A stretch of DNA of 64,000 bases from Solirubrobacteraceae bacterium (lineage in GTDB: Bacteria; Actinomycetota; Thermoleophilia; Solirubrobacterales; Solirubrobacteraceae): NCBI GenBank assembly GCA_036266975.1, contig DATAWZ010000074.1, positions 14,986-78,985 of the forward strand, read 5' to 3'. The first letter of the stretch is position 1. Each line of letters begins with the position of its first letter. Of this stretch, positions 13,312-24,011 are shown one piece after another. Position numbers and translations under genes: made by a program. The notes below the pieces were generated by a model. It made no database searches. It was not told where the DNA came from and was given only the letters and a program-made list of their open reading frames with translations.

Positions 13312-15450
13312 ATGTCGCGAACCCCGCGGGTGCTGGCGATCGATGCCGGCGGCACCATGACCGACACGTTCATCGTCGACGAGGACGGGCATTTCGTCGT
13401 CGGCAAGGCCCAGACGACCCCCGAGGACGAATCGGTCGGGCTGATGCAGTCGGCCGACGATGCGATGCGCCAGTGGGAGATGACCGTCGCGGGGACCTTC
13501 CCCGGCATCCGCTCGGGGGTGTTCAGCGGCACCGCGATGCTCAACCGGCTGCTGCAGCGGCAGGGCCTGAACCTCGGCGTGATCGTCACGGCCGGTCAGG
13601 AGGACAGCCTGCAGATGGAGCGCGGGATCCAGACCTACCTGGGCTACTCCTACGCCGACCGCCTGCACATCGCGACCCATCACCACAACCCGCCGCTCGT
13701 GCCGCGCCACCAGGTCCACGGGGTGCGCGGCCGCATCGACCTGTTCGGCAACGAGGCGCTTCCGCTCCGCGAGCGGGACGTCTACGACGCGGCGACCGCG
13801 CTGCTCGACTCCGGCGTGCAGGGGATCTGCGTGTGCCTGCTGTTCAGCTACCGCAACCCGATGCACGAGGCGCGGGTCAAGGAGATCCTGCTCGAGGTCA
13901 AGGGCCAGCGCGGCACGAACGGCGACTGCCCGCTGTTCGTCTCCTCCGAGCTCTATCCCAGCCGGCGGGACTTCCCGCGGCTGAACACGACGGTGATCGA
14001 GGGCTACGCGGCCGAGCCGTCGCGGCGCACGCTGAGTGCCGTGCGCGATCGCACGAAGGAGGCCGGCGCGGGCTTCGAGCTGCGCGTGATGGCCTCGCAC
14101 GGCGGGACGATCTCGATCGACGCCGACCAGCTCGCGACCACCCTGGTCTCCGGACCGATCGGCGGCGTGGTCGGCGGGCGCTGGCTCGCCGACGAGATCG
14201 ACCTGCGCAACGTGCTCTGCACCGACATCGGTGGCACCTCGTTCGATATCGCGCTGCTCGTCAACCGCAAGTACGACGTGATCTCCACGCCGAACGTCGC
14301 CAAGTTCATGCTCAACATGCCGCTGGTGCAGATGGACTCGGTCGGGGCCGGGTGCGGCTCCTACGTGCGGATCGACCCGAGCGCGCGCCGGCCGGAGATC
14401 GGACCTGACTCCGCCGGTGCCTCGATTGGCACCGCGTGGGTCGAGGGGGGGATCCAGACGGTGACGATCACCGACCTGAACCTCATCCTCGGGCGCCTGA
14501 ACCCCGACTACTTCCTCGGCGGGCAGGTCGCGCTCGATGTCGAGCGTGCCCGCGCGGAAGTCAAGCGCCAGGTCGCCGACCCGCTGCGGCTCGAGCTCGA
14601 GCAGGCGGCCGCCGGCGTGGTCGAGCTGTTCGAGTCCCAGCTGCGCAACGAGGCGGTCGGGCGGATCCTCGGCAAGGGCTACTCGCCGGCCGACTTCACG
14701 CTGCTCTGCTATGGCGGCGGCGGTCCGCTGCACGTCGGCGGCTACACCGCCGGGGTCCCTTACCAGCAGGTGCTGATCCCCGAATGGGCGGCCGGCTTCT
14801 CCGCGTTCGGCTGCGCCTGCGCGGACTTCGAGTACCGGTTCGACCGCCAGGTCGACCTGCCGCTGCTGCCCACCCAGTCCGACGAGGAGCGTGCCCAGAT
14901 GGTCGCGCTCGTCTCACAGACCTGGCGGGCGCTCGAGGAGCGGGTGCGCGCCGAGTTCGCCAAGGGCGGCGGTGACCCCGGCGAGATCACGTTCACCCAC
15001 ATGGTGCGCATGCAGTACTACGGCCAGCTCGTCGACATCGAGGTCGACTCGCCCGCGCCCGACCTGTCGACCGCGGCCGACGCGCAGGCGCTGTGCGACA
15101 CGTTCGAGTCGACCTACCAGCGCATGTACGCGCGGGCGTCCTCCTCGCCCGAGCTCGGCTACCTCGTCGCTCAGGCGATCGTGAAGGGCTCGGTCCCGAT
15201 CGAGAAGCCGCGCCTGCCCACCCTGCCGACCGCCGAGGGCACGCCGCCGAACAAGGAGACGCGCCCGGTGTGGTGGACCGACGCCTGGGTCGACACGCCG
15301 ATCTACGAGATGACCGACGTGCGCCCGGGCCACCGCCTGGACGGACCGGCGATCCTCGAAGCGGAGTCGACGACGTTCCCGATTCCCCCCGACCGCAAGG
15401 CCTGGCTCGATGAGCACGGCATCTTCCACCTCGAGAACAAGGAGGCCTGA
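13312..15450 (+). CDS. acxA: Hydantoinase A family protein; acetone carboxylase beta-subunit-like
   Basis: 712 aa. The N-terminus VLAIDAGGTMTDTFIVDEDGHFVVGKAQTTPEDES closely matches my recollection of AcxA, and the length is similar. It lies immediately upstream of the alpha-like gene. Confidence 0.85.
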   Translation: MSRTPRVLAIDAGGTMTDTFIVDEDGHFVVGKAQTTPEDESVGLMQSADDAMRQWEMTVAGTFPGIRSGVFSGTAMLNRLLQRQGLNLGVIVTAGQEDSLQMERGIQTYLGYSYADRLHIATHHHNPPLVPRHQVHGVRGRIDLFGNEALPLRERDVYDAATALLDSGVQGICVCLLFSYRNPMHEARVKEILLEVKGQRGTNGDCPLFVSSELYPSRRDFPRLNTTVIEGYAAEPSRRTLSAVRDRTKEAGAGFELRVMASHGGTISIDADQLATTLVSGPIGGVVGGRWLADEIDLRNVLCTDIGGTSFDIALLVNRKYDVISTPNVAKFMLNMPLVQMDSVGAGCGSYVRIDPSARRPEIGPDSAGASIGTAWVEGGIQTVTITDLNLILGRLNPDYFLGGQVALDVERARAEVKRQVADPLRLELEQAAAGVVELFESQLRNEAVGRILGKGYSPADFTLLCYGGGGPLHVGGYTAGVPYQQVLIPEWAAGFSAFGCACADFEYRFDRQVDLPLLPTQSDEERAQMVALVSQTWRALEERVRAEFAKGGGDPGEITFTHMVRMQYYGQLVDIEVDSPAPDLSTAADAQALCDTFESTYQRMYARASSSPELGYLVAQAIVKGSVPIEKPRLPTLPTAEGTPPNKETRPVWWTDAWVDTPIYEMTDVRPGHRLDGPAILEAESTTFPIPPDRKAWLDEHGIFHLENKEA

Positions 15451-15453
15451 GCC

Positions 15454-18249
15454 ATGGCCACCACTCAGGACACCCGCGGCCTGCAGGAGCCCGACGCGCC
15501 GCCACCGATCGGATGGGACGGCCGCACGCTGGCCGAGATGCTCGCCCACTCCGAGCAGCTCTTCGCGGAGACCGGCTACTACCACGGGCTGAAGCAGCTC
15601 GCGCTCAAGGACTCCGACCCGCTGCACTTCGAGAAGCTCTTCTCGCGGGTGCGCGGCGGCATGGTGTCGGCGCGCGAGACGGCGCTGAACATCTCCGCCT
15701 CGCCGATCGTTCGGGAGCTGGGCGAGATCTGCTTCGCCCTCTACACGCCCGAGGGCGACAACGTCGCGCTGTCGACCGGGATCATCGTGCACGTCCACAC
15801 GATGAGCGAGGCCATCAAGTACATGGTCCGCCACCACTGGGAGGACAACCCGCACATTCGGCCCGGCGACGTGTTCGCCAACAACCAGCCGACGATCGGC
15901 GACGTGCACAACGCCGACGTGCAGACGTTCGTCCCGATCTTCTGGGAGGACGAGCTGATCGCGTGGGCGGGTGGGGTGATCCACGTGATGGACATCGGCG
16001 CCTCCACGCCGGGCGGCGTGTGCGTCGCGCCGACGACGCGCTTCGACGACGGCATCGACCTGCACTGCATGAAGATCGGCGAGAAGGACACGATCGCGTC
16101 CTGGCACTGGAAGCGTGTCTCGATGCAGTCGCGCGCGCCGGGCCTGTGGATCCTCGACGAGCGCACGCGGCTGGCCGGCTGCCACATGATCCGCGACACC
16201 GTCGAGCGGCTCGTGCTCGAGGAGGGCGTGGATACCTTCAAGCAGTTCATGCGCGAGGCGATCGAGGACGGCCGGCGGTCGTTCAAGCACCGCGCACGGA
16301 CGCTGCTCGTGCCCGGCCGCTACCGCTCGGTGGGCTTCCTGGAGGCGCGCTACGCCGACAAGACCGAGATGCCCAAGCGGGCGCGGCGCGACCAGATCAT
16401 GCACGGTCACTACGAGGCGGTCGTCGACAAGGACGGCCACTGGACGACCGACCTGCGCGGCGCCTCGGCGTGGGGCTGGCACAGCTTCAACGCGACTCCG
16501 GCGGCGCAGCAGGGCATGCAGTGGATCCTGTTCACCCAGACGCTGATCTGCAACGACAAGATCAACGACGGCGCCTACTACGCGACCGACCTCGAGCTCA
16601 CGCCCGGGACGTGGGCGAACCTCGGCGAGGCGCCGTGCTCGTCCTCGTTCCCGTGGATGCCGATGTTCGCGACCTCGACCGGCTACCTGCGGGCGGTCTC
16701 GCGGGCGCTGCAGTCGCGTGGCTACATCGAGGAGATCGTCAGCACCTTCACCGTCCCGGGCAACGTCGCCCAGGGCGGCGGGATCGACCAGTACGGGCAG
16801 GTGTCGGGGTTCATGAACTTCGAGATCGGCGCCCAGGGCCAGGGCGGCAAGTACGTCCTCGACGGCCTGGACTACGGCTCCGCGGTGTTCAACCCCGAGG
16901 GCGACATGGGCGACATCGAGATGTGGGAGCTGGTCAAGCCGATGATCTACCTCGGCCGGCGGATCAAGCCCTATACCGGCGGCGTCGGGCGGCACCGGGG
17001 CGGCTCCTCGTTCGAATCGCTGCTGCTCGTGCACGGCACGCCCGACTTCGAGATCGAGAACATCGGCGCGGGCGGCATGTTCACCTCGCCGGGCCTGTTC
17101 GGCGGCTACCCGGGCGCGCAGGCCTACGTCCACAACGTCTACGGCTCGGATATCTACGAGCAGGCGGCGGCGGGGGCGGCCTACCCGGTGGCCGACGTGT
17201 CCGGCGAGGATCCGCAGCTCAACAGCCTCGCCGGCGAACACGAGATCAAGCTCGATCCGTTCACGCTCATGCAGGCGGTCAAGACCGGTGACGTATACCT
17301 ATCCAGCGGCCGCGGCGGCGGCGGGCTCGGCGATCCGCTGCTGCGCTCGGACGAGCGCATCGAGGAAGACATCGCCGGCGGGCACATCCAGCGCGCATGG
17401 GCCGAGAAGGCCTATGCGCGCGCCGACCGCGAGGCGGCGCGCAGGCGGCGCCTGGAGCGTGCCCGGCCCACGAGCGAGTGGTGGGCCGAGCAGCGCGAGC
17501 GCATCTTGCACCGGGACCTGATCGACCCGGTGAAGGTGATGTATGCCGAGTCGATGCGGCTCGGGCCCCGCTGGGCGGCCGAGTTCCGCGGCTTTTGGGA
17601 TCTCCCGGAGGACTTCGACTTCGACGTCATCACCCCCACGGTGGGGGTGCAGAGCTCGGAGCCCGGGAAGGTCACGCCGGCGCAGACCGTCGAGGAGTTC
17701 CTCGGCCAGTCGACCGCCTACCTTCCCGAGGAGGTCCAGGAGGTCCCGGTGGCCTCACAGATGACCAAGGAGCTGCTCGCCGATCTGCTCGACGAGAAGC
17801 TCTCGCGGCGGGCGGTGCACGACATTCAGTCCGGCCACAAGGACCCCGATCGGTTCGACAAGTGGGTCGCGCTGCTGCAGGAGCGTGTGAGCTACGACGA
17901 CCGGATCGTGCTGCCGTTCGGCGAGGGGCTGAACATCGTGCGGCGGGCCTCGGACGGCGAGCTTGTGATCCGCAGCGACGCGGGCCACGACTTCTGTCGC
18001 TGGGACGAGAACTGGAAGATGCACGCGGTGATGTTCGTGCGCGACACCGATGAGCTCTACCGCGAGCTCTACCCGGCCTTCTCGCACCCCGAGGGCGACT
18101 GGATGGAACTGCGCGAGTACTACTGCCCGATCTCCGGCCAGCTGCTCGAGACCGAGGCGGTCACCCCCGGGTACCCGGTCGTGCACGAGTACCTGCCCGA
18201 CATCGACGGGTTCTACCGCGGCTGGCTCGGGCGCGAGGTGCCGGCCTGA
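15454..18249 (+). CDS. acxB: Hydantoinase B/acetone carboxylase alpha-subunit-like protein fused to a gamma-subunit-like C-terminal domain
   Basis: 931 aa. About 770 aa are hydantoinase_B-like. The last ~160 aa (DPDRFDKWVALLQERVSYDDRIVLPFG...REYYCPISGQLLETEAVTPGYPVVHEYLPDIDGFYRGWLG) resemble acetone carboxylase gamma. Confidence 0.85.
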   Translation: MATTQDTRGLQEPDAPPPIGWDGRTLAEMLAHSEQLFAETGYYHGLKQLALKDSDPLHFEKLFSRVRGGMVSARETALNISASPIVRELGEICFALYTPEGDNVALSTGIIVHVHTMSEAIKYMVRHHWEDNPHIRPGDVFANNQPTIGDVHNADVQTFVPIFWEDELIAWAGGVIHVMDIGASTPGGVCVAPTTRFDDGIDLHCMKIGEKDTIASWHWKRVSMQSRAPGLWILDERTRLAGCHMIRDTVERLVLEEGVDTFKQFMREAIEDGRRSFKHRARTLLVPGRYRSVGFLEARYADKTEMPKRARRDQIMHGHYEAVVDKDGHWTTDLRGASAWGWHSFNATPAAQQGMQWILFTQTLICNDKINDGAYYATDLELTPGTWANLGEAPCSSSFPWMPMFATSTGYLRAVSRALQSRGYIEEIVSTFTVPGNVAQGGGIDQYGQVSGFMNFEIGAQGQGGKYVLDGLDYGSAVFNPEGDMGDIEMWELVKPMIYLGRRIKPYTGGVGRHRGGSSFESLLLVHGTPDFEIENIGAGGMFTSPGLFGGYPGAQAYVHNVYGSDIYEQAAAGAAYPVADVSGEDPQLNSLAGEHEIKLDPFTLMQAVKTGDVYLSSGRGGGGLGDPLLRSDERIEEDIAGGHIQRAWAEKAYARADREAARRRRLERARPTSEWWAEQRERILHRDLIDPVKVMYAESMRLGPRWAAEFRGFWDLPEDFDFDVITPTVGVQSSEPGKVTPAQTVEEFLGQSTAYLPEEVQEVPVASQMTKELLADLLDEKLSRRAVHDIQSGHKDPDRFDKWVALLQERVSYDDRIVLPFGEGLNIVRRASDGELVIRSDAGHDFCRWDENWKMHAVMFVRDTDELYRELYPAFSHPEGDWMELREYYCPISGQLLETEAVTPGYPVVHEYLPDIDGFYRGWLGREVPA

Positions 18250-18301
18250 GATAGGCGCGGCCTCGAGCGGCTCGAGCTTGTCGAGCCGCTCGAGCGGGCC
18301 C

Positions 18302-19426
18302 TCAGCCGCCGACCCTGGCGAGCTGGGGCCCTGACAGGTCGGTGAACCCCAGCGGCTCGTAGGGCCCGAGGATCATCGTCTCGAGGATGCCGATCCCGAC
18401 CTCGTCGGGCTGTCCGTCGCGGCTGAGCGTGACCCGGCTGATCGCGTGGTTGTGCAACTGGCGCGGATCGGCGGGGTTCACGTCGACGAGCGCGAAGTCC
18501 TCGCGCTCGACCGCGAGCTCGCCATGGTAGGTGCCGTGGCCCCACGTCGGATGCGGGCCGTAGCCGATCGCGCTCATGATGAAGCGCGTCAACGGCTCGA
18601 AGGCGAGCGTGACCGCGGGCGTCCCCGGTGGCGCGATCTCCACCGTCCCGGCGGTCGGCCAGCGTGTGGGCTCGGCGAAAGCGAGGTCGAGCGTGGCCGC
18701 CGAGGTCTCGGTCATCTCCCCAGGGTGCGCGCCGTCGGGACAGAGCACGCCGCGGGTGTTGACAACGGCGCCGTCGTGCTCGGCCTGCAGATGGAAGAAG
18801 GCGCTCGAGTCGGCGAGGTTCACCGGCGTCCAGGTCCAGAAGAACTGTTGCGGGCGCTCGGGTACCCACGGCTGCTCGTCGGCGGCGCCCAGCGCGCGCA
18901 CACCCCAGGAGCGATCGCGGGTCCCCGCCGATCCGGGGGGCAGTTGCTCGCGCCGACCGTCGACCTCGATCCAGCCCGACCAGTGCCCGTTCTGGGAGAA
19001 GCGCGTGTAGTTCCAGAACATCCGCGGGCCCACGCGCCACTTGAACTGGGGCTCCTCGACCGGGAACGCGCGTCCGTCGAAGCGCAGATCGGCGCTGATG
19101 CCCTCGTAATCGTCCACGACGATCCGCAGCGAGCGCAGGTGCTCGATGACCTCGATGCGGATCGGCCCGACGTGCATGTTCATGCGTTCCATGTTCAGGT
19201 GCCGCGAGGCGTGGATCGCGTGGTGGGTGCCGTCGCGCAGGATCCCGATGTGCGCGTCGGTGAGGTTGACGTGCGGGTAGACACCGAACGCGATCTCGAA
19301 CACGGTGCTCGCGTCCGGGGCGTACCCGGCGAAGAACGAGCGGTCGTAGAAGTTGCGATCGGTGCCCGAGTAGGCGATCGGCTCGGGCGTCTGGTGAATC
19401 GGCAGCTCGTCGGCCTTGGTGAGCAT
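18302..19426 (-). CDS. Conserved hypothetical protein (374 aa), third gene of the dikinase-like operon
   Basis: Clean ORF with protein-like composition (ELPIHQTPEPIAYSGTDRNFYDRSFFAGY...), starting 33 nt downstream of the 513-aa gene. No family recognised. Confidence 0.7.
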   Translation of the reverse strand: MLTKADELPIHQTPEPIAYSGTDRNFYDRSFFAGYAPDASTVFEIAFGVYPHVNLTDAHIGILRDGTHHAIHASRHLNMERMNMHVGPIRIEVIEHLRSLRIVVDDYEGISADLRFDGRAFPVEEPQFKWRVGPRMFWNYTRFSQNGHWSGWIEVDGRREQLPPGSAGTRDRSWGVRALGAADEQPWVPERPQQFFWTWTPVNLADSSAFFHLQAEHDGAVVNTRGVLCPDGAHPGEMTETSAATLDLAFAEPTRWPTAGTVEIAPPGTPAVTLAFEPLTRFIMSAIGYGPHPTWGHGTYHGELAVEREDFALVDVNPADPRQLHNHAISRVTLSRDGQPDEVGIGILETMILGPYEPLGFTDLSGPQLARVGG

Positions 19427-19459
19427 GGTGACCTCTCAGGGTTGATCGTTGACGTGACG

Positions 19460-21001
19460 CTATGGCCTGGAGCGCGGAGCGACGGGCGCAGCGCCCAGCT
19501 CGCGGTGCCATTGCAGGAAGGTGGCCAGGACCGGGTCCTCTTCGGCCGGCCTGCGGGGCTGGGCGCCGCGAGCGACGATGCCGCGGTCGCCGTCGACGGA
19601 GATCGTCTCGCCCTCGTGCACGGGGAGCTCGCCGGTGCCGCAGACCGCGGGGCGGTTCAGGCCGCGCGCAACGACCGCGGCGTGGCTGGCCCGGCCGCCT
19701 CGGGCGGTGACCAGGCCCGCCGAGGCAAGGACGCCCGACAGGTCGGCGGGCGAGGTCGTCGGGCGGACGAGGATCACCGCCTCCCCAGCCTCGGCGCGGG
19801 CCTGGGCGGACTCCGAGGTCAGCGCGACGATGCCGACCGCGGCGCCCGGCGAGGCCGCAAGCCCACGAGCGAGAACGTCGGCCTCGGCTGGCTCGCAGGC
19901 GAACACCGCGGCGCGGGCACCGATGAGCTGCTCGTCGCTCACCCGCGCGACGGCCTGCGCCCGGGAGATGAGCCCCTCCTCGGCGAAGGCCACGGCGAGC
20001 CGAACGGCGGCCCGCGCGCTGCGCTGGCCTACTCGCGTCTGCAGGATCCAGACCCGGCCCTGCTCGATCGTGAACTCGATGTCGCATAGGTCCCCGGTGT
20101 CGCGCTCGAGGATCTCGAAGACCCGCTCGAGCTCGGCCATCGCGGCGGGCAGGTGCGTGCCCAGCTCGCCGAGCGCGAGCGTGTCGCGCTCGCCGGCGAC
20201 CACGTCCTCGCCCTGCGCGTCGAAGAGCACGTCGCCGAACGCACCGCGCGCGCCGGTCGACGGGTCGCGAGTGAACGCGACGCCGCTCCCGGAGTCCTGG
20301 CCGCGGTTGCCGAAGACCATCTGCTGGACGACGACCGCGGTGCCCATCGACTCGTCGATGCCCTTGTGCCGGCGGTAGGCCTGCGCGCGCGGCGAGTCCC
20401 AGGACCGGAAGACCGCGGCGATCGCCTCGGCCAGCTGCCCGCACGCGTCCGGGAATGGCACGCCGGACTGCTCCTCGATCAGCGCAAGCAGTGCCACGCA
20501 GCGGTCGCTTGCGCCGGCGCCGGCCGGCAGGTCAAGCAGCGCGTCCTCGACCACGCCGGCCGAGATCCCGCGCACGGTGGTCGCGAAGCCGTGCAGCAGC
20601 CGCTCCAGCGAGGACTGCGCGAAGCGCTCATCGCCGGTCTCGCGCGCCAGCGCCTCGGCGCCCGCGGGCGTCAGCCCGACGTTGAGCACGGTGTCCATCA
20701 TTCCGGGCATCGAGACCGGCGCGCCCGAGCGCACGCTGACCAGCAGCGGCGAGCGGTCGTCGCCGAAGCGCCGCCTGGCCCCGGCCTCCAGGGCGGCCAC
20801 GCGCTCGTGAACCTCGTCCAGCAGGCCGGTTGGGAGCGCTCCGCTGGCGGCGAACTCCCGGCCGGCGGGTGTGCCGATGATGAAGCCGGGCGGCACCGGC
20901 AGGCCGAGGCGGACCATCGAGACGAGCCCCTCGCCCTTGCCGCCGAGGATCTCCCGGCCCGCCTCGCCGCCGTCGTGGAAGCTGTAGGTCAGCGCGCCCA
21001 T
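19460..21001 (-). CDS. PPDK/PEP-synthase N-terminal ATP-grasp domain plus swivel phosphohistidine domain protein (no TIM-barrel domain)
   Basis: Motifs GGKGEGLVSMVRLGLPVPPGFII, SVRSGAPVSMPGMMDTVLNVGL, and C-terminal TARGGRASHAAVVARGLNRPAVCG. The ATG shares base 21001 with the upstream TGA. Confidence 0.85.
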   Translation of the reverse strand: MGALTYSFHDGGEAGREILGGKGEGLVSMVRLGLPVPPGFIIGTPAGREFAASGALPTGLLDEVHERVAALEAGARRRFGDDRSPLLVSVRSGAPVSMPGMMDTVLNVGLTPAGAEALARETGDERFAQSSLERLLHGFATTVRGISAGVVEDALLDLPAGAGASDRCVALLALIEEQSGVPFPDACGQLAEAIAAVFRSWDSPRAQAYRRHKGIDESMGTAVVVQQMVFGNRGQDSGSGVAFTRDPSTGARGAFGDVLFDAQGEDVVAGERDTLALGELGTHLPAAMAELERVFEILERDTGDLCDIEFTIEQGRVWILQTRVGQRSARAAVRLAVAFAEEGLISRAQAVARVSDEQLIGARAAVFACEPAEADVLARGLAASPGAAVGIVALTSESAQARAEAGEAVILVRPTTSPADLSGVLASAGLVTARGGRASHAAVVARGLNRPAVCGTGELPVHEGETISVDGDRGIVARGAQPRRPAEEDPVLATFLQWHRELGAAPVAPRSRP

Positions 21002-23304
21002 CAGTAGGAGCCCTCCTCTTCGCGTGAGATACCGAGCGTCTGCAGGTAGTCCTCATGGAGCTCCATCCAGACCGTGTGCAGCGACTCGAGGCGCGGGCTG
21101 GTGACGTAGTCGTGCTCGCCGGCCTCGACCTTCTCGAGCGCCGCGCTCAGTCGCGGGGCGTAGCCGTCGAATCGCGGCAGGAGCTCGCTCGTGCGCCGCA
21201 GCGCGGGCTCGACCCGCTCCACGAGGTCGGCGAGCTCGCCCACCAGCTCCCAACGGTCGTCCTCCGCGGCGGACTGCCAGCGGGCGCCCAACGCCTTGAA
21301 CGGGCCGTTCGCCGCCAAGAAGCGCTCGTAGATCGCCTCCAGCGTGTCGCGGTCGAGCGTGCCCTGCTCGGCGGCGAGCAGCGACGCGTGCTTGGCCAGG
21401 CCGGCCTCGGTGGGGATGTAGCCTGCCGAGGTCTTGACCACCAGGCCGGCCTCCTCGAGCAGCGAAGCCTGCTCGAGCGACTCGCGGGTGCCGCGCAGGA
21501 CGAGCGGATGCAGCGCCGCGAGCGGCACATCAATGAGCGCGCCCTCGGGGAGCGCGGGGAAACCCGTGCCGGTGATGAACAGCTTGGCGACGAGCTGCTT
21601 GCCGAGGCCGTCGCGCACGAGCGGGTAGTAGGCCTCCGAGGCCACGGGGTCGAGCTCGTGGAAGTCCAGCTCGTCGCGCATCTGCTCCCAGACCCCGGCG
21701 AGCCGCGCGAACGGCACCACGAACTCCGAGTAGTAGACCTGCGCGCCAGCCATGATCTTGTCGCGGGGCGGCATCGAGGCGATGCGCTTATACAGCGCGG
21801 TCGTCGCCGGGCCGCAGATGTCGAGGTAGCGCTGCATCTCGGCGTCGTCGATCAGGCGGATCTCCGCGGCCGGCGTTTCCCAGCGTTCGCGGACGTAGAC
21901 GGCCGCGGACTGCAGGTACTGCAGGTAATTGGCCGGCTCGGTGAAGGTCGTGCCGCCGTCCATCAGCGCGACGTCGAGGTCCGCGCCGCCGGTGTCGAAG
22001 ATCATCGCCTGCGTGAAGCAGTGCGGCAACTGCTCGGCAACGTCGTGCCAGTGGTACATCGGGTCGTGCAGGAAGTGGTCGCGCACGATCATGAAGCGCC
22101 CGTCACCGAGGTCATACGGGCCGCTGTCGTTCAGGCCCGAGCGGTTGTCGAAGTGCAGGAGGAAGCCGAGGACCTCGGTCGAGGCGTTGAACGAGGTGAA
22201 CAGCGCGCGTCGCTCTCCGTCGCCGACCGGCTGTGCGTCGCGCGCGAAGCGCTCGATCCACGAGCGGTCGAGCACCGCGCCCTTGTAGCCCCGCATCGAG
22301 GTGAACAGCTCGGCGCCCTCCTTCTCCCACATCCCCATGTACAGGCGGCGCATGAATTGGGCGACGAGCGCGACGTCCTCGGCGTCGGCGGCAGGGTCGC
22401 GGATGCCCAGCTCGCCGAGGATCGCTCGGCCGAACATAGGCGTGAACCCCGTGCACCAGATGTGCAGCATGTTGGCCTTGCTCGCCGGCTCGCGGCGTGC
22501 GGTGCGGCCCAGATCGATGAGGCCCTCCACGCCGACCTGCTCGAGGATCAGCCGGTAGAACGCGGGGTAGCGTAGCCACTGCTGCACGCAGCCGAAGCAC
22601 TCGTACTCCTGTCGCGGGATCAGGCCGGACTCGCCCTCGGTGGCACGCAGGGCCAGGAAGTCCCAGATGTTCCAGGCCATGTAGGTCTGCAGCGCATTGA
22701 GCTCCTGGACGGTCAGGTCGCGCGCGGTGTTCTCCGCGGTGAGCGCCAGGACGCCGCTGCTCAGCCCCGCGCGGACCTGCTCGTCGCCGGCGCGGCCGTG
22801 GGGGATCGTGCCGCCGAACTGGTGCAGTAACGGCAGGATCTGCTCCATCATCGCTGCGGCCGCGGTCTCCTCCTCGGTCGGGTCGGGCAGCGGAGCGTCG
22901 TCGACCGGGGCGCCGGGCTCGATCAGCACGCGCCCCTCCTTGGTGCTGACGTCCAGGCGCGCGATCGCCCCGTCGGCGGGGATGATCTCGTTGCGCGAGG
23001 AGCGCACGCCCTCGGTGAATGTCACGCCCATCACGCACGGGATTCCGTACTCGCGGGAGAGGATTCCCAGGTGGCTGGTCGGTGCGCCCTGCAGCGTGAC
23101 GATGCCCTTGACGCCGGCGGTCAGCGCCGGGGTCAGGAACGTCGTCGTCCCGCCGCGGGCGACCACGATCGTGTTCGAGGCCTCGCCGCTGCCGATGAAG
23201 TCGATCACGGCCTGCGGCGAGTCGAGGAACCGCACTGGGCCCTCGGTCTCCCGTCCGTCCTCGAACACCGCCGCGCCTGTACCCACCAACTTGAAGTCGT
23301 CCAT
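21001..23304 (-). CDS. PEP-utilising-enzyme mobile (swivel His) domain protein with a ~640-aa unassigned C-terminal region
   Basis: N-terminus contains VVARGGTTTFLTPALTAGVKGIVTLQGAPTSHLGILSREYGIPCVMG. The start is taken at ATG 23304 (GGAG upstream); the track start at 23340 is also possible. Confidence 0.8.
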   Translation of the reverse strand: MDDFKLVGTGAAVFEDGRETEGPVRFLDSPQAVIDFIGSGEASNTIVVARGGTTTFLTPALTAGVKGIVTLQGAPTSHLGILSREYGIPCVMGVTFTEGVRSSRNEIIPADGAIARLDVSTKEGRVLIEPGAPVDDAPLPDPTEEETAAAAMMEQILPLLHQFGGTIPHGRAGDEQVRAGLSSGVLALTAENTARDLTVQELNALQTYMAWNIWDFLALRATEGESGLIPRQEYECFGCVQQWLRYPAFYRLILEQVGVEGLIDLGRTARREPASKANMLHIWCTGFTPMFGRAILGELGIRDPAADAEDVALVAQFMRRLYMGMWEKEGAELFTSMRGYKGAVLDRSWIERFARDAQPVGDGERRALFTSFNASTEVLGFLLHFDNRSGLNDSGPYDLGDGRFMIVRDHFLHDPMYHWHDVAEQLPHCFTQAMIFDTGGADLDVALMDGGTTFTEPANYLQYLQSAAVYVRERWETPAAEIRLIDDAEMQRYLDICGPATTALYKRIASMPPRDKIMAGAQVYYSEFVVPFARLAGVWEQMRDELDFHELDPVASEAYYPLVRDGLGKQLVAKLFITGTGFPALPEGALIDVPLAALHPLVLRGTRESLEQASLLEEAGLVVKTSAGYIPTEAGLAKHASLLAAEQGTLDRDTLEAIYERFLAANGPFKALGARWQSAAEDDRWELVGELADLVERVEPALRRTSELLPRFDGYAPRLSAALEKVEAGEHDYVTSPRLESLHTVWMELHEDYLQTLGISREEEGSY

Positions 23305-23323
23305 CGTCTCACTCCGCTCTGTT

Positions 23324-23347
23324 TGCAAATGTGACGTCATATTTACA
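23324..23347. promoter_or_regulatory. Imperfect 24-bp palindrome (putative TetR operator) in the divergent promoter region
   Basis: tgcaaatgtgacgtcatatttaca matches its own reverse complement at 20 of 24 positions, centred on GACGTC. It sits in an AT-rich spacer within GC-rich DNA. Confidence 0.45.
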
Positions 23348-23369
23348 TTCTGCCCCGAGGTCTGTCAAG

Positions 23370-24011
23370 ATGCATTGCGTGGCCGAGACGATCGAGACCG
23401 CGCGGCGGGGGAGCAACAGCCGGGGGCGGCGCTCGCGCGAGCGCCTGCTGCGCGCCGCGGCCGACTGCTTCGGGGAACGGGGGTACAGCGCGACGCGCAT
23501 CTCGGACATCACCGCGGCCGCGGGGATGTCCCAGGGCGCCTTCTACCGGCACTTCAAGGACAAGAACGACATCCTGGTGGAGGCGCTGCGCGAGCCGCTC
23601 GATGAGCTGCTGGCGACGACCGCGGTCGGTGCCGGGCTGGAGATCGACCGGGCGGCGCTGACCGCTGGAAACACCGCGTTCTTCGCCATCTACGCGCGCC
23701 ACCGCAAGGTGATGCGCGTCATCCGCGAGGCTGCCGCGCTGCATGAGCCTGGCCTGGTGGAGCTCTGGCTCGGGGTGCGCGGAAAGTACGTGGAGCGCAT
23801 CGTGCGCTGGCTGCAGGAGCTGCAGGCCGCTGGGCGTTTGGAGACCCGCGACGTGCAGCTGATGGCCGAGGCGCTGGGCTCCGTGCTCGATCAGATGGCC
23901 TATACGCGGATCGGGCTTTCCACGGCGCCGACCAGCGAGCAGGAGATCGAGCTGCTCGGCCAGGTCACCGGGGAGATCTGGTACCGCGCCCTGCGCGGCT
24001 CTTCGCTGTGA
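23370..24011 (+). CDS. TetR/AcrR-family transcriptional regulator
   Basis: RERLLRAAADCFGERGYSATRISDITAAAGMSQGAFYRHFKDKNDIL. The start is taken at ATG 23370. Confidence 0.85.
   Translation: MHCVAETIETARRGSNSRGRRSRERLLRAAADCFGERGYSATRISDITAAAGMSQGAFYRHFKDKNDILVEALREPLDELLATTAVGAGLEIDRAALTAGNTAFFAIYARHRKVMRVIREAAALHEPGLVELWLGVRGKYVERIVRWLQELQAAGRLETRDVQLMAEALGSVLDQMAYTRIGLSTAPTSEQEIELLGQVTGEIWYRALRGSSL

Follow-up and report, generated by a model that had tools for sequence, protein, structure and literature searches.

What does a dikinase phosphorylate when it is split over two proteins, carries two phospho-histidine swivel domains and lacks the TIM barrel that binds phosphoenolpyruvate (PEP) and pyruvate? 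The question is raised by a three-gene operon in the DNA of a Solirubrobacteraceae bacterium (contig DATAWZ010000074.1, positions 14,986 to 78,985), a stretch of 64,000 nucleotides that we call the window and on which all positions are numbered. The operon encodes proteins of 767, 513 and 374 amino acids (aa) and lies beside a divergent gene for a TetR-family regulator. From the three proteins, their predicted structures and related loci in other genomes we arrived at a reading to which we give about an even chance: the locus would be a TetR-controlled, ATP-driven dehydration module, in which a multi-part, AMP-forming dikinase serves as the alcohol kinase and a lyase then eliminates the phosphate.

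An open reading frame (ORF) scan placed the three genes on the minus strand at 21001..23304 (767 aa; an alternative longer reading from 23340 gives 779 aa), 19460..21001 (513 aa) and 18302..19426 (374 aa). A Joint Genome Institute (JGI) gene call, made independently on the same metagenomic contig, returned the same 767, 513 and 374 aa together with a TetR of 213 aa. The 767-aa and 513-aa genes are joined by a TGATG stop/start overlap at 21001, and a gap of 33 nt separates the 513-aa gene from the 374-aa gene. Ribosome-binding-like sites were seen nine bases 5' of the 767-aa start (GGAG) and before the 374-aa gene (GAGAGG). A TetR-associated operon is supported by these observations, and both the coordinates and the JGI call agree with the initial annotation of this DNA, which had described three packed, co-directional genes diverging from TetR across a 65-bp spacer that holds a 24-bp palindrome. 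The parts of the operon are as follows.

18302..19426, minus strand: 374-aa homologue of 25-phosphosteroid lyase (Rv3169 family), RDRSWGVR motif at 18896-18919 (NF053593, phmmer and fold)
19460..21001, minus strand: 513-aa truncated pyruvate, phosphate dikinase (PPDK), ATP-grasp nucleotide-binding domain plus swivel domain, His440 at 19682-19684 (PPDK_N, PF00391)
22915..23304, minus strand: residues 1-130 of the 767-aa protein, second phospho-histidine swivel, His78 at 23071-23073 (PF00391, E 1.2e-11)
21535..22887, minus strand: residues ~140-590 of the 767-aa protein, domain X, no known family (no Pfam or PDB match)
21004..21522, minus strand: residues ~595-767 of the 767-aa protein, domain Y, helical, no known family (no Pfam match)

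Domain content of the operon proteins

The 374-aa protein scored 372 bits against the 'Rv3169 family' model NF053593, whose cut-off is 150. A phmmer search aligned its residues 2-311 with 9fzn (E 1.1e-35) and also matched 9g2i and 9g4c, entries named '25-phosphosteroid lyase'. Its AlphaFold2 model, with a predicted local distance difference test (pLDDT) of 85.8, was aligned by Foldseek with 9g4c, 9g2i and 9fzn over ~365 columns, at template modelling (TM) scores of 0.80-0.83 and E ~1e-27 to 1e-28, while the next-best folds, AttH, kievitone hydratase and fungal Diels-Alderases, reached TM ~0.45-0.5. H11 and the motif R-D-[RH]-S-W-G-x-R, for which we assume a catalytic role, are invariant across 25-phosphosteroid lyase (25-PSL), the 374-aa protein and distant DUF7065/DUF7064 members. 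In Sterolibacterium, 25-PSL carries out the second half of an ATP-dependent dehydration of tertiary steroid alcohols: the kinase 25-HSK forms the 25-phosphoester, from which the lyase eliminates phosphate to give a delta-24 alkene (PMC7411048, PMC8449060, PMC11061730). As a homologue of this lyase, the 374-aa protein most likely acts on a phosphorylated product and would not be part of a kinase substrate module.

The 513-aa protein contains PPDK_N (PF01326, E 2.7e-42) and PF00391 (E 2.5e-21), and aligns with residues ~4-486 of solved PPDK at E ~1e-106. Its catalytic-type His440 sits in GGRASHAAVVAR, which conforms to the PPDK motif GGxxSHAAVVAR, and a SHAAVVAR-type motif is kept in 36 of the 38 truncated-PPDK homologues found across the loci described below. 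NF004531, a short 'pyruvate, phosphate dikinase' model of 534 positions, was matched over residues 10-500 with 478.4 bits (cut-off 456); for TIGR01828 the score of 503 bits lies below the cut-off of 843. Pfam detected the PEP/pyruvate TIM barrel (PF02896) in neither the 513-aa nor the 767-aa protein, and because it lacks this domain the 513-aa protein is not a PPDK. Dikinase-like proteins of this kind have been described before. Rv1127c of Mycobacterium tuberculosis, renamed VadK, has no PEP/pyruvate domain and autophosphorylates His422 when ATP and Mg2+ are supplied; its phospho-acceptor was not identified, an interaction with methylcitrate-cycle enzymes was reported, and co-expression of its operon partner Rv1126c, a protein of ~200 aa, improved its solubility (PMC13400623). 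Judged by its sequence, the 513-aa protein is of this VadK/Rv1127c type, so that it would belong to an already described dikinase family without TIM barrel that automatic annotation misnames.

The 767-aa protein proved far less tractable. Its only Pfam domain is PF00391, at residues 44-98, and the same holds for each of its more than 450 homologues, all of which are named 'PEP-utilizing enzyme' or 'hypothetical'. An AlphaFold model built from 38 sequences (pLDDT 90.7, pTM 0.81) was compared with the PDB by Foldseek. Matches to PPDK, pyruvate kinase, Enzyme I and rifampin phosphotransferase were confined to the swivel; the alignments to the rifampin phosphotransferase structures 5hv1 and 5hv2 span only 117-124 columns, the extent of that domain. 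For residues ~140-767 nothing was returned below E=1, and there was no TIM-barrel match. Because Foldseek aligns locally, and because its candidate list was not saturated by the 114 matches obtained for this model, refolding X alone would leave the outcome unchanged. Searches by sequence gave no match for an X profile of 23 sequences among PDB sequences, none for X or Y in Pfam at E<=10 and none for X/Y in NCBIfam, and Pfam assigned no domain to ten distant X homologues. X is also rare: in 1.84 billion proteins it makes up only 231 representative clusters. Y is modelled as a helical bundle with a short helix-hairpin ahead of it. Across 38 homologues of the 767-aa protein the invariant positions are His78, EGESGLIPRQEYE (223-235), RDHF (408-411) and H743/W746/H750/E751, and all 17 of the stand-alone swivel proteins carry a SHLGILSRE-type motif. 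We propose that X binds the substrate and catalyses phosphotransfer, a role that is the weakest link of the mechanism set out below.

The domain searches bear out most of what the initial annotation had read from the sequence: an ATP-grasp region with a swivel in the 513-aa protein, a second swivel in the 767-aa protein, no TIM barrel in either and ~640 aa of the larger protein without assignment. The four peptide motifs that it quoted are all present. It had also called the 374-aa protein unassignable, which the solved and named 25-PSL homologue contradicts. The proposal of an ATP-dependent phosphotransferase remains plausible, but the same homology speaks against the part of it in which the 374-aa protein belonged to the substrate module of the kinase. 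The initial annotation had further stated that a match of this protein to a characterised family would refute its idea; in our view the idea is refined by this match and not ended, since neither the 640-aa region nor the gene set as a whole yet matches any operon of known function.

Conservation of the module and its neighbours

A scan with one genome per species gave 77 loci, nearly all in Actinomycetota, with Paraconexibacter, Patulibacter, Conexibacter, Pseudonocardia, Actinomycetospora, Gordonia, Rhodococcus, Nocardioides, Arthrobacter and Curtobacterium among the hosts. Co-occurrence was tallied by tblastn and hidden Markov models (HMM) within +/-10 kb; many contigs are short, and the counts are therefore lower bounds. 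We quote this tally instead of the gene clusters, since the gene caller and single-linkage clustering had merged some lyase-like or mis-started ORFs into the X cluster.

Swivel in the same locus as X: 72 of 78 loci
Y in the same locus as X: 53 of 78 loci
Truncated PPDK in the same locus as X: 45 of 78 loci
PSL-like gene in the same locus as X: 45 of 78 loci
X, PPDK_N and PSL together: 31 of 78 loci

The initial annotation had made its proposal depend on a conserved neighbourhood, and this was found: the order 767-513-374 is kept in the closest relatives, L001-L005, with TetR orthologues in L001-L004. Farther away, swivel, X and Y occur fused, as separate genes or permuted, and several X paralogues may share a locus. 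Judged from this comparison, the three modules cover residues 1-130 (swivel), ~150-585 (X) and ~610-767 (Y) of the 767-aa protein. The second swivel is in many loci a free-standing protein of 138-160 aa, as would be expected of a phosphoryl carrier. Five consecutive genes of L072 encode a swivel (161 aa), X (436 aa), a PSL-like protein (321 aa), Y (181 aa) and a truncated PPDK, stop and start codons overlapping among the first three; in L080 and L081 a 77x-aa gene is followed directly by one for a 310-aa DUF7065+DUF7064 protein. X-PSL pairs are even multiplied within single loci, with up to four X copies that each stand beside a lyase-like gene of their own. A homologue of X with only 27% identity again has a truncated PPDK and a DUF7065 protein beside it, together with a swivel that stands alone, within a cluster of polyketide synthase (PKS), KSIII and acyl carrier protein (ACP) genes.

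Several arrangements were noted alongside. Stand-alone Y proteins of 170-230 aa adjoin the truncated PPDK gene in many loci and may be compared with Rv1126c in size; a Y-domain search gave 33 relatives, none of which was named as mycobacterial. At 5944-11963 of L082/L083 (GCA_902829765.1) lie genes for a DUF7065 protein, a swivel of 246 aa, an X protein of 726 aa and a truncated PPDK of 590 aa, in a polyketide/fatty-acid-type cluster with KSIII genes, ACPs and a PKS that has a CurL-like C-terminus and a thioesterase. This cluster hints at a biosynthetic 'phosphorylate then eliminate' step that forms an olefin. Directly 3' of the lyase-like gene, L080 (13267-14307) and L081 (13212-14675) carry two reductase-type genes. 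One encodes an F420-dependent LLM-class oxidoreductase (TIGR03857, above cut-off), which is silent on the substrate; the FAD protein matched a geranylgeranyl-reductase family with 90 bits against a cut-off of 159, too weak to serve as a substrate clue. If these reductases acted on the alkene product, the net pathway would, speculatively, be a deoxygenation of the alcohol.

Kinases of another kind also accompany the lyase family. A Paraconexibacter operon diverges from TetR in the order P450, aldehyde dehydrogenase (ALDH), short-chain dehydrogenase/reductase (SDR), 768-aa, 509-aa and 360-aa genes, and its last gene encodes a 656-aa fusion of an APH kinase with DUF7065 and DUF7064. This uncharacterised fusion of an APH/EcKL-type kinase to DUF7065+DUF7064 (Pfam; L079, Paraconexibacter sp. 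AEG42_29, 14971-16941) is a Rosetta-stone link of kinase to lyase. In Novosphingobium the gene of an APH/EcKL kinase overlaps the start of a PSL-like gene, and the characterised 25-HSK is itself an APH-type kinase (PMC8449060). On these three grounds 'kinase + PSL-type lyase' is a recurrent unit, and the kinase slot of the window would be filled by the dikinase set.

The recurrent neighbours in the related loci were aldehyde dehydrogenase (27 loci), acyl-CoA ligase (24), SDR (22), enoyl-CoA hydratase (20) and acyl-CoA dehydrogenase (15), followed by zinc-dependent alcohol dehydrogenase (Zn-ADH, 14), luciferase-like oxidoreductase (11), APH kinases (9) and thiolase (7); GntR, PucR and LuxR-GAF types recur as regulators. 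Such a set is that of a catabolic alcohol route ending in beta-oxidation. It names no substrate, and NCBIfam gave the neighbouring P450, ALDH and SDR genes generic matches only, with no substrate clue; what the conserved neighbours point to is that an alcohol of an aliphatic, isoprenoid-like or steroid-like kind is broken down. In 13 related loci (e.g. L033 16578-17414) a protein of the tyrosine phosphatase family (PF13350, Y_phosphatase3) was also present, usually beside Zn-ADH and ALDH, and might hydrolyse a phosphorylated intermediate or reset a phospho-histidine.

Control region and flanking genes

On either side of the operon the window contains the following features.

23370..24011, plus strand: TetR-family regulator, 213 aa (PF00440, E 6.7e-17)
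23305..23369: divergent promoter spacer, 65 bp, 49% G+C against 70% in the window (sequence composition)
23324..23347: 24-bp imperfect palindrome TGCAAATGTGACGTCATATTTACA, candidate TetR operator (10 of 12 arm positions pair)
Within 23305-23369: half-site of the palindrome, TGCAAATGTGA
13312..18249, plus strand: hydantoinase A (712 aa), then a 931-aa fusion of hydantoinase B with an acetone-carboxylase gamma domain (PF08882) (Pfam)

The palindrome occurs once in the window, with 0 occurrences expected by chance. TetR orthologues of 59-62% identity adjoin the orthologous operons of L001-L004, and in each of these loci the 11-nt half-site TGCRAATGTGA is found exactly once, in the spacer beside the TetR orthologue. 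It has no other occurrence in the 85 loci, and within the window it is seen only at 23324. The TetR_N helix-turn-helix, the divergent arrangement and the conserved palindrome in the spacer together have the form of a divergent-operator TetR repressor system. Since its half-site is phylogenetically footprinted in L001-L004, the palindrome is likely the TetR operator, at which TetR would probably repress the operon until it binds a ligand. A scan for the sigma-70 consensus gave no promoter match, and one for intrinsic terminators detected none; both are uninformative at 70% G+C, the former also for this actinomycete phylum. The 52-bp gap between the convergent genes (18250-18301) consists almost entirely of a G+C-rich inverted repeat (CTCGAGCGGCTCGAGCTTGTCGAGCCGCTCGAG) without a T tract, which may be a bidirectional terminator hairpin that the consensus scan missed. 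A PADLOC search for anti-phage defence systems returned no match for any of the three operon proteins.

The hydantoinase-type genes at 13312..18249 converge on the operon and score far below the cut-offs of the acetophenone carboxylase and caprolactamase models of NCBIfam. They encode an ATP-dependent carboxylase or a lactamase-like enzyme that is uncharacterised and whose B-gamma fusion is unusual; genes for a PucR-type regulator and for an acyl-CoA ligase are located upstream. Synteny comparison revealed hydantoinase A/B homologues in no other related locus, so that we regard this acetone-carboxylase-like neighbour as coincidental.

A proposed dehydration mechanism, its alternatives and its relatives

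In the mechanism that we propose, ATP would be bound in the ATP-grasp domain of the 513-aa protein, whose own swivel would be autophosphorylated on His440 with release of AMP, as homology to VadK suggests. The phosphoryl group would then move to His78 in the 767-aa protein, through a His-to-His transfer or through direct docking of the second swivel on the ATP-grasp domain. From there the swivel would pass it to the hydroxyl of a hydrophobic substrate held by X, a step in which Y may assist or serve as a scaffold. By homology to 25-PSL, the 374-aa protein would finally eliminate phosphate from the ester to leave an alkene, and overall an alcohol would be turned into an alkene and water, paid for by the conversion of ATP to AMP. 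A dikinase spends two phosphoanhydride bonds, and its other products are PEP and aryl phosphates. Tertiary alkyl phosphates are about as energy-rich as ATP (Keq ~0.34) and have a very high group-transfer potential (PMC8449060), and because they share this property with PEP and aryl phosphates, a dikinase would suit the reaction.

Several points weigh against this mechanism. X has no recognisable phosphotransferase fold, and its role as the phosphoryl-accepting substrate site is suggested only by synteny and by where it sits in the architecture. We know of no precedent for phosphotransfer between the histidines of two swivels. The 374-aa protein is only 27-28% identical to 25-PSL, and the catalytic role of the motif they share is assumed. 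About 40% of the X loci have no PSL-like gene within 10 kb and about 40% have no truncated PPDK, some of these loci lying on short contigs. Lastly, VadK of M. tuberculosis was proposed to be a regulatory protein kinase and not the component of a catabolic enzyme (PMC13400623).

The last point leads to a different function for the whole set, in which the truncated dikinase would be a non-canonical histidine kinase of a regulatory phosphorelay, and X and Y of the 767-aa acceptor would control enzymes, possibly the lyase-like protein. The autophosphorylation of VadK and its reported interaction with methylcitrate-cycle enzymes (PMC13400623) would agree with such a relay, as would the lack of a recognisable catalytic fold in X or Y, and the helix-hairpin that precedes the bundle of Y could be a binding module. 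However, the loci that hold up to four X copies, each with its own lyase-like gene, are better explained by substrate-specific catalytic pairs; conventional regulators of the TetR, GntR, PucR and LuxR-GAF types are already at hand in the loci, and the other partners of the lyase family are APH-type kinases of small molecules. A regulatory relay thus seems to us unlikely.

We give still less credence to two further readings, which concern the chemistry. The initial annotation had considered a ketone or phenol substrate plausible in view of the acetone-carboxylase-like genes nearby, which would make the system a ketone-enolate or phenol dikinase like PEP synthase, PpsAB or HpeHI, with X/Y and the 374-aa protein as its substrate module and a pathway tied to the enzyme of those nearby genes. 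Split dikinases that act on phenols are indeed known (PMC12167813), and the convergent genes do encode hydantoinase A and a hydantoinase B–acetone-carboxylase gamma fusion, but their absence from all other loci removes the ground for this suggestion. Moreover, the rifampin-binding-like substrate domain that PpsA, CreH and HpeH possess is missing from the 767-aa protein, 5hv1 and 5hv2 being matched by the swivel only, and the 374-aa protein is the homologue of an alkyl-phosphate lyase, whereas aryl phosphates cannot undergo such an elimination; a dikinase of this kind is accordingly improbable here. About equally improbable is a 'phosphate synthase' that would ionise the ester to a carbocation for isomerisation, cyclisation or substitution, in the manner of a terpene synthase and for biosynthesis or remodelling. 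It would be in keeping with AttH, kievitone hydratase and fungal Diels-Alderases as the nearest folds after 25-PSL, and with the one distant locus inside a PKS/KSIII/ACP cluster, but most loci are catabolic in content (alcohol and aldehyde dehydrogenases, acyl-CoA ligase, acyl-CoA dehydrogenase, enoyl-CoA hydratase, thiolase) and the sole characterised member of the lyase family performs an elimination.

The dehydration module would differ in part from each of the known systems closest to it. With 25-HSK/25-PSL of Sterolibacterium denitrificans (PMC7411048, PMC8449060) it has in common the sequence and fold of the lyase and the proposed logic of phosphorylation followed by elimination. There, however, the kinase is a single 40-kDa APH-type enzyme that converts ATP to ADP and has no lyase candidate near its gene, whereas in the window the truncated PPDK would act as the kinase together with a second swivel and X/Y, presumably converting ATP to AMP; all of these are encoded in one operon with the lyase homologue, in a host from an aerobic-type actinomycete lineage. 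VadK (Rv1127c; PMC13400623, NF004531) has the same PPDK nucleotide-binding domain and swivel histidine domain and likewise no PEP/pyruvate domain, but was described as a stand-alone regulatory histidine kinase without an identified phospho-acceptor domain partner; the truncated PPDK of the window instead shares its locus with genes for a second swivel protein, X/Y and the lyase, as do its homologues in 45 of the 78 related loci.

In PpsAB, CreHI, HpeHI and the single-chain rifampin phosphotransferase (PMC12167813) a catalytic histidine shuttles the beta-phosphate of ATP to the hydroxyl of a small molecule, as proposed here, and the two-component members PpsAB, CreHI and HpeHI likewise separate the ATP-grasp component from one that combines swivel and substrate domain. 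The conserved catalytic histidine on the swivel of the substrate component is common to that class and to the window, where His78 is invariant in 38 homologues. The ATP-grasp component of these enzymes is, however, PEP-synthase-like and without swivel, while the 513-aa protein is PPDK-like and keeps one; and in their substrate component a C-terminal swivel comes after a rifampin-binding-like domain, while the second swivel of the window is N-terminal and X/Y show no resemblance to that domain. Having no APH domain, no rifampin-binding-like domain and no C-terminal swivel, the system of the window belongs neither to the APH-type 25-HSK family nor to the HpeH-class dikinases. The PEP:sugar phosphotransferase system (EI to HPr to EIIA to EIIB) resembles the proposed relay in passing a phosphoryl group from histidine to histidine between proteins, and the histidine domain of EI is of the same swivel superfamily, but its donor is PEP and its carriers have other folds, whereas the window lacks a PEP-binding domain. 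Lastly, the uncharacterised APH–DUF7065–DUF7064 fusions and pairs also place a kinase beside the lyase-like gene or fuse it to it, with a different type of kinase. Rv3168 (an APH-type kinase), Rv3169 and Rv3167c (TetR) of M. tuberculosis have this same layout with a TetR neighbour.

Two parts of the operon can thus be assigned to known families, the 513-aa protein to the VadK type and the 374-aa protein to Rv3169/25-PSL. Domains X and Y, the second swivel as a carrier and the association of a VadK-type dikinase with a PSL-type lyase are what we found described nowhere. A more far-reaching proposal, possible yet doubtful in our judgement, is that the module represents a new class of AMP-forming, ATP-dependent dehydratases, in which an Enzyme I-like truncated PPDK would feed a swivel-to-swivel relay, X with its novel fold would phosphorylate unactivated, probably tertiary, alcohols and a PSL-type elimination would follow. 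The VadK of M. tuberculosis would then be an orphaned relay donor and not a protein kinase of the usual kind.

These results provide hypotheses for the X/Y family, for the truncated PPDKs, unable to make PEP yet entered in databases as 'pyruvate, phosphate dikinase', and for the Rv3169/DUF7064-7065 family, whose more than 3,000 members are all labelled 'hypothetical'. As VadK was recently reported as a virulence factor of M. tuberculosis, the conserved partners of truncated dikinases in the present loci are also of interest, and suggest where the phosphate of such a protein goes in other Actinomycetota. If the proposed mechanism is true, it would be useful for the biocatalytic dehydration of hindered alcohols, and dehydration by phosphorylation and subsequent elimination would be widespread, not limited to anaerobic sterol degraders, with at least two unrelated kinase solutions.

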